Source: Candidatus Thorarchaeota archaeon (GTDB lineage Archaea > Asgardarchaeota > Thorarchaeia > Thorarchaeales > Thorarchaeaceae). Taken from it: a DNA stretch of 16,081 nt. Position numbers and translations under genes: made by a program. Location: assembly GCA_016839605.1 (NCBI GenBank), contig JAEOTX010000234.1:1-16081 (forward strand). The letters run 5' to 3'. A model generated the notes under the pieces. The model ran no database searches and was not told the DNA's origin. It worked only from the letters and a program-made list of their open reading frames with translations. Shown here in pieces: positions 5,775-8,706 of this stretch (its first letter is position 1; each line of letters begins with the position of its first letter).

Positions 5775-6200
5775 ATGCAAAGAGTGAGGTTTCGGGCCTG
5801 TGGACATGCAAATGTGATTGGGGAACACAGGACTACGGTAGAGATTACCACTGAAGACTACCTTACTCAAGAGGGTACTTGCATCATAGGGATTCGAGCT
5901 GACCAAGCATTGAATGAGGTACCCGATGAAATCAAGGCACTTGCAGCGTCAGAGAAAACCAAGATCATTCTGAAACTGAAAGCAGGTAATCTTACAGAGG
6001 CGGTAACAGGGAGAGGGAATCCAGGGCTCACATATTCAGATGCGGTCAGCATGGTGGCAAGAAAGAGCTCATTTGTCTGCGATAGGACTCTTATGGTAGG
6101 TGCTGACAAGGCGGCTTCTGATCTGGACCGCTCGTTTGTTGATGCCTTGAAGGATTCTAGTGCGTCAATAGAGTGTGAGCTACTCTTTGTCACTGAATGA
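5775..6200 (+). CDS. DUF371 family archaeal protein
   Basis: GHANVIGEHRTTVEIT, LTQEGTCIIGI, VARKSSFVCDRTL and ADKAASDLDR are typical DUF371 motifs. Confidence 0.88.
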   Translation: MQRVRFRACGHANVIGEHRTTVEITTEDYLTQEGTCIIGIRADQALNEVPDEIKALAASEKTKIILKLKAGNLTEAVTGRGNPGLTYSDAVSMVARKSSFVCDRTLMVGADKAASDLDRSFVDALKDSSASIECELLFVTE

Positions 6201-7260
6201 CTACATCCGCAACCATCTGATACTCATAGGGGGCGCTATCGCGCACTCTACGGATAGTTTCAATCCGAGCTACTTCTCTGCCACTCTCGTTGACAAGACC
6301 GGTAATCTTCTCGGTCAGGCTGCCCTCGGGGTCTTCTCCGCCCATGAATTCGTAGTAGTGCATGACTCCCTCGGGTTTTAGAGCCTTACAAGCATCCCCG
6401 ACAAACTCGAATGCTCCAGCTGGGTGATTCATGATCACACGATCGACATCACCATCAAAGCCGCTCTGGATGTATTCGTGGGTATCTCCAAGTATTGGTA
6501 TGACTTCTCCAGCAAAACGATTGAGTTCCAAGCTCTCTTGAAGTAGGTCGATAGCATCTGGGTTGATGTCTACTGCGTAGACTTTGACTCTATGTCGTCT
6601 TGCGATATGCAACGCAAAGGGTCCAACTCCAGTGAACATGTCTATGACCAATTCACCATCTGTAGCTAAATCGGCTATTCGATTGTGCTCCTCAAGCAGC
6701 CTTGGGCTGAAGTAGGCTTTAGCAACATCTACAGCAATTCTGAGATTATACTCGGTGTGAATTGTCTTTGTCTTATTCTGACCTGCAAGAATATCGTATT
6801 GCCGGACCCGTGTTGTTCCAGATATTGGGCCCCTCTTACCAAGTACCGTGTTGAAATTCTTGTGAACTGTCTTTAGAGCGGCGCCAATCTGCCTTGCGTA
6901 GTCCGTGAGCTCGTCAGGAATCTCAATGACTGCTATGTCCCCAACCAAATCATACGCACGTGGAAGTAATTCAAGTAAATCAGAAGGAATCAGACCCACA
7001 AGCGCTTCTGAGAGTGTTTTTGGACCCATAAAGACTGGTGTGAACTCGCGTTTTCCAACCTCGTATTTGATCTTCCCAAGGATCTTCTTGAGGCCCTTCT
7101 CTGTCTTCTTCTTGGTCAATGGGAAGTACAGCCAGTCTTCGTCTTTTGCTATCTTGCACTCAGTATCTAGAAGTTTCGCATCAATAAGGGCCTGTCTAGC
7201 CTTCTCTCCATCACCCACGTTTGTTCGCACGAAAGGTCTATCGAACGACACGGGTATCAT
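6190..7260 (-). CDS. trm5: tRNA (guanine37-N1)-methyltransferase, Trm5 family (with N-terminal D1 domain)
   Basis: RAYDLVGDIAVIE, TIHTEY, KAYFSPRL, VIDMFTGVGPFAL, AVDINP, RVIMNHP, MHYY, VRDSAP. Overlaps DUF371 tail-to-tail by 11 bp. Confidence 0.9.
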   Translation of the reverse strand: MIPVSFDRPFVRTNVGDGEKARQALIDAKLLDTECKIAKDEDWLYFPLTKKKTEKGLKKILGKIKYEVGKREFTPVFMGPKTLSEALVGLIPSDLLELLPRAYDLVGDIAVIEIPDELTDYARQIGAALKTVHKNFNTVLGKRGPISGTTRVRQYDILAGQNKTKTIHTEYNLRIAVDVAKAYFSPRLLEEHNRIADLATDGELVIDMFTGVGPFALHIARRHRVKVYAVDINPDAIDLLQESLELNRFAGEVIPILGDTHEYIQSGFDGDVDRVIMNHPAGAFEFVGDACKALKPEGVMHYYEFMGGEDPEGSLTEKITGLVNESGREVARIETIRRVRDSAPYEYQMVADVVIQ

Positions 7261-7317
7261 TTAGCAAGCGTTCCTAATGAGTCTGGTTGTCGAGGGTATG
7301 CAGCAGTTGCACTAACC

Positions 7318-7360
7318 TTGGACAAAGTTGGACAGGTGCTTATATAGTTCAAATTGGACA
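7318..7360. promoter_or_regulatory. TATA box flanked by three TTGGACA direct repeats
   Basis: TTGGACA at 7318-7324, 7328-7334 and 7354-7360. CTTATATA at 7339-7346 is usable on either strand, for trm5 or for the + strand transcript. Confidence 0.55.
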
Positions 7361-7364
7361 GCAT

Positions 7365-7605
7365 GATGTAGAGGTGGTCAATGACAAGAACCACGTCAAT
7401 GAACTGACTCTACAGTCGCCGCGAGTTGCACGGAAACAGAAAACGCCTGTGGAGAGGACGTAAGACGTCTTGGTAAATCCTCCGAGATTTGTGTGATGCT
7501 GCTTCGATGAATCAGGAACCGAACATCGATTATGGAACGTTATGTCCAAGTCTGTATAAGTTTCGGGCAACGGGAAGGATTATCATCAGGCAAAGACGCG
7601 ACATC
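7365..7605 (+). ncRNA. Candidate structured RNA (ncRNA or long 5' leader), family not recognised
   Basis: No credible protein in the 366-bp gap between trm5 and the likely NTase start. It begins ~20-25 nt after the TATA box. Hand-found helices cover most of the stretch: 7367-7373/7408-7414, 7374-7378/7390-7394, 7395-7398/7405-7408, 7425-7435/7561-7571, 7436-7440/7551-7555, 7455-7461/7465-7471, 7473-7479/7486-7492, 7504-7509/7524-7529, 7415-7419/7598-7602. Confidence 0.45.
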
Positions 7606-7626
7606 TCCGCAGCAGGGGTAGCAATA

Positions 7627-8706
7627 TTGCCTGGACAAGAACACACACTTCGAGACCGTGATCTTATACTCACAGAACCTGGAATCTTCTTTCGGGTCTA
7701 TGGTTATTGGCACCCATCTTCTGGGTACGTCTGTGACCCTGAATATGTCCCGATGTCAATATTCAACACAGAGACCCTGCTTGAACAACGAATCAGGAAG
7801 AAGGGATATTGTAAGTTCTATGGCTCGGAGGGTATAGAGTTTGTCACAGAGAAGTATCCCCAATTCATGGTCCCGTATCCACCACTTGATACAATCCTCG
7901 TTGGAGTGAGGCACTCTGACGTTGAAAGGGAACTGAGAACAGACGTGCGTCTGAGAGAGATGCTTGAATCACCGCCGGATGACCTCCTCGCAGGCCTCCT
8001 AGTTGAACTCATTGACTTTCTTCTTGATAACACGTCTATCAGAAAGTCGGACTTGGGGATATTTGGGAGCCTCCTTGCTGGCATATACCACCCTCAGTAC
8101 TCAGACCTAGATATCACAGTCTATGGAAAGGACACATTTGAGAAACTCAGACCCTATCTGATGGAGTGGTACTCTGAGCCTGATGGATATCTTGCCAATG
8201 AGTTCATTGTAGAGGTGCAGCAGTTTCTTGACAAGCCCTCACCCTTCACTGCAATAACTCGAGAAGAGATAATCGCGCATCATCGTCGAAAGGGAATCTA
8301 TGGGATACTCCCTGGGGCAAGAGACCCATTCCTCAAGGTTGAGTTTGAGCCCATCCGGAGATTTGACGAGATTGATAATCTAGCAGAGGATGCCACAATG
8401 ACCCCTAGTGACAGAATCACGGTCCGGGCACGCATCACTGAGCATGATAATGGGTACTACATGCCTAGTGAGTATGGAATAGAAACAATCGAGGTCCTTG
8501 AGGGGGACACAAGTGCCTCTCCCACGAGGGTCCTCAACTATATTGAACAGTTCAGGATGATGGCCTTCAAAGATGAAGAAGTAATAGTTTCAGGGGTGCT
8601 CGAGCATGTTGAACGAAGAAACACCGAGTACGATCAGATAACACTGAGCTATCCACTTGGATGGGAGGCAAACGTCCTCAAGACGATAGATGCAGTGGAA
8701 TTCTAA
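7627..8706 (+). CDS. Pol-beta-superfamily nucleotidyltransferase, COG1665-like; catalytic motif intact
   Basis: LRDRDLILT..G..FRVYGYWHP N-terminus. GIFGSLLAG...SDLDITVYG gives the GS + DxD motif (DxD at 8104-8112), with KVEFEP as the candidate third acid. The C-terminal part is beta-rich (OB-like). Start placed at TTG 7627 behind AGGGG, giving 359 aa, similar to the paralog; the track start is 7489. Confidence 0.75.
   Translation: MPGQEHTLRDRDLILTEPGIFFRVYGYWHPSSGYVCDPEYVPMSIFNTETLLEQRIRKKGYCKFYGSEGIEFVTEKYPQFMVPYPPLDTILVGVRHSDVERELRTDVRLREMLESPPDDLLAGLLVELIDFLLDNTSIRKSDLGIFGSLLAGIYHPQYSDLDITVYGKDTFEKLRPYLMEWYSEPDGYLANEFIVEVQQFLDKPSPFTAITREEIIAHHRRKGIYGILPGARDPFLKVEFEPIRRFDEIDNLAEDATMTPSDRITVRARITEHDNGYYMPSEYGIETIEVLEGDTSASPTRVLNYIEQFRMMAFKDEEVIVSGVLEHVERRNTEYDQITLSYPLGWEANVLKTIDAVEF

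Follow-up and report, generated by a model that had tools for sequence, protein, structure and literature searches.

The 277-bp segment at 7297-7573 (+ strand) of the window, i.e. the whole 16,081-nt stretch of Candidatus Thorarchaeota DNA that was analysed, is very probably a protein-less derivative of an IS607-type insertion sequence, a type of element in which a serine-recombinase gene, tnpA, accompanies the RNA-guided nuclease gene tnpB; the derivative retains the left end with the tnpB promoter, the first tnpB codons and the last ~160 nt with the omega-RNA scaffold. The segment is inserted at GG, belongs to a multi-copy family, has a 3′ module homologous to the 3′ end of tnpB plus the right end of the element, and has a pseudoknotted fold backed by covariation. 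A sequence-only reading of the same DNA had proposed an unrecognised class of RNA at 7365-7605; what lies there is better described as a TnpB nuclease's omega-RNA (reRNA) scaffold, within a mini-element of IS607 type that has no genes.

The 7365-7605 stretch is entirely non-coding and lies in the spacer between two divergent genes, both outside the element, one for a Trm5/TYW2 tRNA methyltransferase (6190-7260, − strand; Pfam TRM5-TYW2_MTfase, E 2.6e-43) and one for a nucleotidyltransferase (NTase; 7627-8706, + strand; Pfam NTP_transf_2). With 7261-7620 as the query against 40 related genomes, sequence alignment revealed that bases 7261-7296 abut 7572 onward directly in G005, G009, G015 and G014, i.e. 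the insertion is missing, and the spacer of G006 is likewise empty as judged by spacing. Alignment of the orthologous spacers gives the empty allele as ..GTCGAG-GG-CAAGG.. (the empty sites can also be written GTCGAGGG|CAAGG) and the filled allele as ..GTCGAG-GG-[TATGCAG...GGGCAAC]-GG-(C/G)AAGG.., and no target duplication is seen on comparing the two. Thus, 7297-7573 is a 277-bp insertion in the Trm5/NTase spacer, flanked by GG on either side and lacking from at least five related genomes. A conserved system comprising the RNA plus the nucleotidyltransferase is ruled out, as congeners keep both genes without the RNA element.

The true NTase start is the TTG at 7627, which is preceded by a GGGG box; this assignment follows from the invariance of GGGG..AATATTG at all the orthologous loci and from closure of the upstream frame at the empty sites. 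The open reading frame at 7489-8706 (405 aa) was rejected as the real gene, being 46 codons too long, with its first 46 codons in the mini-element; these extra codons (window 7489-7626) result from a frame that stays open on leaving the mini-element. The ATG at 7277 was likewise rejected as the original start, since that frame reaches a TAA in the empty-site genomes. It may be asked whether the host has co-opted the insertion, such that its outward promoter and transcript feed expression of the NTase gene, 54 nt downstream. The promoter faces that gene, there is no T-run terminator between 7573 and the TTG at 7627, and the element has been retained at this site in three species; however, sister species lack the element, downstream of the insertion the promoter-like AAGGATTATCAT of the native locus and the Shine-Dalgarno-like GGGG are unchanged, and the TATA box of the G001 copy is mutated (TTATGTAG), all of which make co-option improbable.

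The 3′ 159 nt of the element (7415-7573) recur in five copies in its own genome (G000) and, as detected with a covariance model, in 24 of 61 genomes from the taxonomic family, where a single genome may have as many as 37; related copies are present, e.g., at G000:C28 and G000:C229, and in many relatives. In full-length copies the repeat runs over the 3′ end of tnpB and terminates precisely where the element does, a layout seen in G000:C45, G000:C84 and G022:C57, and in copies from G018 and G024. In the C45 and C84 copies the repeat begins inside ...CEVCGLRIDRDLNAAVNL..., which corresponds to the TnpB zinc finger and RuvC-III motif, and the sequence directly upstream of it is ...EYHCEVCGLRIDRDLNAAVNLVA... 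Among 34 distinct copies, homology stops at ...CAACGG (7573), after which the bases differ in each copy. It is by this layout, with the scaffold over the tnpB 3′ end and the right end of the element and the guide taken from the flank, that a TnpB omega-RNA (reRNA) is defined.

The TnpB open reading frames of the C45 and C84 copies (406 and 403 aa) match HTH_OrfB_IS605, OrfB_IS605 and Cas12f1-like_TNB, and their closest relatives (70-84% identity) are all from Candidatus Thorarchaeota MAGs. They resemble the ISDra2 TnpB/omega-RNA system (PDB 8BF8, 8EXA, 8H1J) in that they align end to end with ISDra2 TnpB (8BF8; E 5e-69) with the catalytic RuvC D/E/D residues intact, and in that the C-terminal tail overlapping the RNA (..T.NA.G..VR..) is similar. 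No close tnpB partner was found for the window copy itself, the nearest tnpB-linked scaffolds being only 68-78% identical. Beside the tnpB element of C84 there is a weak match (L022 1929-1981, − strand) to the archaeal C/D-box sRNA family sR2, scoring 23.6 bits against a gathering score of 42.

The type of transposon is indicated by the G022:C57 copy, in which a 190-aa Resolvase-family tnpA open reading frame overlaps a 409-aa tnpB by 4 bp and is followed by the same scaffold; the presence of a serine-recombinase tnpA next to tnpB makes that element IS607-type. GG is present at both junctions in all 18 of the 18 copies with a recognisable left end. By contrast, ISDra2 is an IS200/IS605 element with a Y1 transposase and a TTGAT target, and no Y1 transposase (PF01797) was found in the six genomes G000, G011, G014, G018, G022 and G024. 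Counting against the IS607 assignment, the C45 and C84 TnpBs are nearer to that of ISDra2 than to the solved 384-aa relative 8iaz, which is probably the TnpB of IS607 ISFba1. No tnpA of either kind was detected in the element's own genome, which is 80% complete, so the element can be called only potentially mobile at present. IS607 crossover takes place between GG dinucleotides, and ISXfa1 TnpB uses a GGG TAM and requires the pseudoknot (PMC10711439). Immediately to the left of the element is GAGGG (7292-7296, + strand), a TAM-like target-adjacent motif whose last two bases are the GG of the crossover; all 18 copies have GG at the end of the left flank, and in 14 of them it is GGG. The GG junctions and this left motif match the published IS607 mechanism and GGG TAM.

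The mini-element corresponds to an internally deleted IS607-type tnpB element, and its anatomy is most readily appreciated by comparison with the full-length tnpB-only copies (~1.35-1.4 kb) and with ~280-bp mini-elements of G018. The left end (7297-7362, + strand) comprises TATGCAGCAGTTGCAC, three TTGGACA repeats (7318-7324, 7328-7334 and 7354-7360) and the TATA-like TTATATAG (7340-7347), with a start motif that is common to copies in G018 and G024; over the copies with a recognisable left end (n = 18) the element starts (T/C)ATGCA(A/G)CAG(C/T)TG and ends CAACGG. An inverted TTGGACA occurs at 7543-7549, at the right end, and these repeats, three on the left and one inverted on the right, are probable recombinase-binding repeats. 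The TATA box is at the same position in the full-length copies, where it lies ahead of the tnpB start codon, and mini-elements retain the left end, the fixed-position TATA-like box, the first few tnpB codons and the last ~50 codons. In the window the left end is followed, on comparison with full-length copies, by what is left of the tnpB start, joined to a decayed piece of RuvC-III coding sequence (7363-7414, + strand), then by the scaffold (7415-7573, + strand); the reading frame goes ATG ATG and then TAG (7363-7371), and the 277 bp contain no open reading frame of their own. In the genus of G018 (G018, G049, G058, G066, G071 and G075) there are dozens of ~280-bp mini-elements per genome, 88-96% identical and many of them at contig ends; the mini-element family appears to be currently expanding in that genus.

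Two other types of entity were considered for the window copy and rejected. A classic MITE, with terminal inverted repeats and mobilised by a DDE transposase, is disfavoured relative to an IS607-type element by the GG junctions, the lack of a duplication and the tnpA of G022, and the 'inverted repeat' behind the MITE idea is the TTGGACA repeat motif. For a C/D-box sRNA (AUGAUGU at 7363, CUGA at 7404), the spacing is too short and C′/D′ boxes are lacking.

The fold of the scaffold was derived from an alignment (A2) of the 34 homologous copies of 7415-7573, using RNAalifold and explicit counts of pairs. In the resulting covariation-derived fold pairing is kept in 98.8% of the pair cells, with double (compensatory) changes at 12 pairs; none of 500 shuffles gave as high a value and slid controls gave 33-44%. 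P1 (7415-7437) has covarying column pairs, i.e. 2/22 (UA replaced by CG in eight copies) and 9/15 (CG in 20, GC in 14). P2 pairs CCUG (7446-7449) with CAGG (7513-7516) and P3 pairs GAGG (7454-7457) with CUUC (7502-7505); a lineage-variable hairpin at ~7473-7492 has double changes in six of its seven pairs. P5 (CCGAAC 7519-7524/GUUUCGG 7560-7566) has four pairs each with 7-8 compensatory copies, and P6 is a small stem (GGA 7534-7536/UCC 7545-7547). The P1 loop forms a pseudoknot with the right end (GUUG 7425-7428/CAAC 7568-7571), with column pair 14/159 being GC in 28 copies, UG in three, UA in two and GU in one. All these helices are on the + strand. By folding energy the scaffold alone has a z of +1.0, despite its covariation support; thermodynamic folding thus misses a covariation-backed scaffold, and a near-zero z is no argument against this class of RNA.

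This fold differs from that proposed in the sequence-only reading, within whose coordinates there is nevertheless a conserved multi-helix module with a pseudoknot. All of the helix strings quoted in it are present where described, including TGTAGAG (7367-7373)/CTCTACA (7408-7414), GTGGT (7374-7378)/ACCAC (7390-7394), GTCA/TGAC and the long helix GTTGCACGGAA (7425-7435)/TTTCGGGCAAC (7561-7571); a homolog-based covariation analysis, which it had suggested, did reveal a conserved fold in the 34 copies, of a different form, the earlier pairings giving 78.2% of cells paired over 7415-7573 as against the 98.8% above. Of the long helix, the first 4 bp (GUUG/CAAC) survive, as the pseudoknot, and the remainder is broken at two pairs in 19-20 of the 34 copies. 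Among the four internal hairpins, that at 7473-7492 and the GGA/UCC core of that at 7533-7548 are conserved; those at 7455-7471 and 7504-7529 are specific to the window copy. The proposed ACAGA/TCTGT pairing is not conserved in the 34 copies, and P1 and P5 take the place of CGGAA/TTTCG in their alignment. The crossing and terminal pairings that draw on 7574-7605, on which a pseudoknot or switch had been postulated, fail because the DNA there is outside the element and unique to each copy, i.e. the crossing 3′ strand is flanking host DNA, occupied by the predicted guide. As to the extent of the RNA, transcription is predicted to start ~26 nt past the TATA box (7340-7347), not far from the proposed 5′ end, and the proposed 3′ pairings, which involve 7579-7601, draw on the host flank.

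The 5′ three-way junction (7367-7414) is best read, from comparison with full-length copies, as a deletion joint in which a remnant of the tnpB start codon meets a decayed RuvC-III remnant. Its pairs are 85.7% paired over the five copies of the subfamily compared with 83.0% in shuffles, 92 of 500 of which are as high, without any covariation, and half of the junction is deleted in the G001 ortholog, where 18 nt have been lost between GTCAATGA direct repeats in the 7363-7414 region. It had been likened to an SRP Alu domain; no Rfam match to such a domain or to a riboswitch was obtained, even at E up to 10. A novel, free-standing structured RNA of ~240 nt, riboswitch-like or SRP-Alu-like and serving the downstream NTase locus, has in its favour that the helix strings exist, that the minimum free energy (MFE) fold recovers the outer 5′ stem and that a TATA box is located upstream. 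Against it, the folding energy of 7365-7605 (+ strand) is little different from that of dinucleotide shuffles (MFE −65.3 versus −62.8 ± 4.3 kcal/mol, z −0.59, with 54 of 200 shuffles folding as well; the reverse strand gives z −0.26), at least five congeners retain both genes at this locus but lack the segment, the 5′ junction is unconserved, the 3′ pairings are in copy-specific flank, and the sequence recurs as a dispersed, tnpB-linked repeat. We consider such an RNA exceedingly improbable.

Scans against Rfam gave nothing at gathering level; at relaxed thresholds they gave a consistent match to a known family, RAGATH-18 (RF03064). With this sub-threshold match and the near-zero z, the outcomes that the sequence-only reading had itself named as refuting it were partly obtained. 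The match spans 7446-7518 (+ strand; model 1-71 of 71, 23.9 bits), and the homologous place in three other copies, including the G022 tnpA-tnpB element, scores 25-28 bits; none of the four (23.9-28 bits) reaches the gathering score of 44.9 bits. The motifs CCUGUGGAG and CGAUGAA.CAGGAA are common to the scaffold core and RAGATH-18. According to Ren et al. 2024 (PMC11061315), IS607 TnpB reRNAs have RAGATH-18 as their core, with ~50 conserved nt on one side and ~60 on the other; there are two pseudoknots, and the TAM is AGGAG. The present scaffold family is thus a divergent archaeal branch of the RAGATH-18-type IS607 guide RNA, lying below the Rfam cut-off.

The scaffold thus has much in common with the RAGATH-18-containing reRNAs of IS607 TnpBs, such as those of ISFba1 (PMC11061315) and ISXfa1 (PMC10711439), i.e. 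its place at the 3′ end of tnpB and the right end of the element, a relative with a serine-recombinase tnpA, GG at both junctions with a purine/G-rich left motif (the published TAMs are AGGAG and GGG), full-length alignment of the central core to RF03064, and a pseudoknot from the 5′ hairpin loop to the 3′ end beside the guide. It differs in scoring 24-28 bits rather than 44.9 or more, hence its lack of annotation by Rfam, in a scaffold of ~159 nt rather than 187 nt, and in its host, an Asgard archaeon, when 98% of the reported strains are Firmicutes. The window copy is also without tnpB or tnpA. Stand-alone omega-RNAs, as described by Altae-Tran 2021 in the account relayed in PMC10691335, act in trans, as do PATE-like gene-less IS derivatives (Meers et al. 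2023, PMC10055086). Like these, the window element is protein-less and has been mobilised, combines both ends with a guide scaffold, and has effector-encoding copies in the same genomes. It differs from the described examples in being archaeal and of IS607 type (GG crossover, TTGGACA repeats) instead of IS605 type with subterminal palindromes; its own activity in trans is a predicted one. With both ends kept, no protein gene, empty alleles and further dispersed copies, the window copy is one more example of an already known kind of element, the stand-alone omega-RNA mini-element.

If it functions as these likenesses suggest, the TATA box at 7340-7347 would direct transcription from about 7370; the transcript would include the scaffold and continue into the flank, whose first ~16-20 bases (7574 onward) would serve as the guide, a length taken from the literature (PMC10711439; PMC11061315). 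The predicted guide (7574-7593, + strand; GAAGGATTATCATCAGGC...) is the host DNA right after the right end. TnpB from a full-length relative (G000:C45 or C84, with D/E/D intact) would bind the mini-element RNA in trans, and the complex would cut the empty version of the site, which has the RGG motif and a match to the guide; the filled site would be spared, since its right end reads CGG before the guide. A serine recombinase, also supplied in trans, would move the element by GG crossover.

Alternatively, the element may be an inert fossil, i.e. an immobile sequence without a working guide RNA whose pairings are inherited from its parent. The lack of a detected tnpA in its 80%-complete genome and of a known close tnpB partner fits this alternative, as does some visible decay, namely a C.A mismatch in P1 of the window copy (7417/7435), the 18 nt missing from the G001 ortholog and, in that of G011, a mismatch in the pseudoknot. 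Between G000 and G001 the scaffold has undergone four and three polarised changes on the two branches and the element has changed at about half the third-codon-position rate, which indicates weak constraint only. By contrast, with the covariance model R1 the window copy scores 162 bits, equal to and within the range of the tnpB-linked copies, the TATA box is retained in four of the five subfamily copies (that of G001 being the exception), and the subfamily has recently spread between lineages. An inert fossil, for which the identification of the window copy as a protein-less IS607-type derivative would still hold, is a possibility to be taken seriously, though the less favoured one.

The spread of the subfamily shows a discordant pattern at two loci. 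Host clades were defined from the third codon positions of both flanking genes, which are 45-61% identical between clades: clade A comprises G000 and G001, clade B comprises (G011, G002) with (G005, G015), clade C G009 and G014, and clade D G006 and G004. At locus 1, the Trm5/NTase spacer, the subfamily is present in G000, G001 and G011, with copies 91-95% identical (92% between the two lineages), and the locus is empty in G005, G015, G009, G014 and G006, among them sister species of G011; the comparison here was of window 7297-7573 with G011:C29, G011:C68 and G001:C80, at the identical GG site. At the same GG, G002, the sister of G011, has another, decayed 253-bp member of the family (G002:C94), 68-70% identical and with a 15-nt scaffold deletion. 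At locus 2 (G000:C28 ~7276-7542; G011:C79) the subfamily is present in G000 and G011 only, the copies being 84.5% identical; G005, G015, G009 and G014 have an empty locus 2, and G002, G012, G007 and G010 probably do as well, to judge by flanks that matched partially or with gaps. The locus 2 insertion, at GG/TAATACC, falls on the upstream gene's stop codon; the first bases of the element (TAG) provide a new one.

The five subfamily copies form one clade (support 95/93). The flanking genes of the two host lineages are ~47-61% identical at third codon positions, i.e. saturated, and vertical descent, at the G000/G001 rate, would predict ~63-75% identity of the copies between clades; the ancestor of the copies is thus far younger than the hosts. 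At either locus the flanks keep the type of their own lineage as far as the junction, and 18-19 nt of the would-be guide target are identical across species at both. IS607 recombinases are reported to have little target preference. No co-converted flanks, as a sign of recombination-based homing, are apparent at either locus; on the left, the nearest lineage markers are 11-12 nt away at locus 1 and 4-6 nt away at locus 2, and on the right of locus 1 they are ~20 nt away. Every one of them is of the recipient type, and the absence of co-conversion argues against simple homologous-recombination homing, especially at locus 2. Near locus 2, at G000:C28 ~7798-7897 (L019 2001-2100), there is an intergenic block that is 93% identical between G000 and G011, the third positions of the neighbouring genes being only ~50% identical; the block matched nothing in scans for tRNAs and against Rfam.

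It may be that the same-site copies arrived at two GG sites in two distant species by a guide-RNA-dependent route, either by TnpB/omega-RNA cleavage of the empty site followed by repair, or via an R-loop by the RGG that steers a serine recombinase to the adjacent GG; this proposal is a tentative one, to which we attach well under an even chance. It is also possible that an older resident element was replaced by recombinase action on its ends, or that there is a cryptic site preference. All of the genomes are MAGs, and cross-contamination is unlikely, because the G011 copies have private substitutions and clade-B flanks.

The work removes a false lead, i.e. a new structured RNA possibly working with nucleotidyltransferase genes, and puts in its place an exact annotation, with element ends, promoter, scaffold helices, pseudoknot, guide and TAM-like motif. 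The RAGATH-18-type IS607 guide RNA has, on this assignment, a divergent and abundant branch in the Thorarchaeota, with as many as 37 copies in a genome, that the Rfam threshold misses; its covariance-supported fold and the intact TnpB genes are usable for testing archaeal TnpB systems. Of these results, only the discordant same-site pattern at the two loci might surprise a specialist, and it bears on the role of TnpB guide RNAs in the spread of elements. If the guide-RNA-dependent route is true, the pattern would be evidence from natural populations of inter-lineage homing or targeting by a protein-less guide-RNA element.
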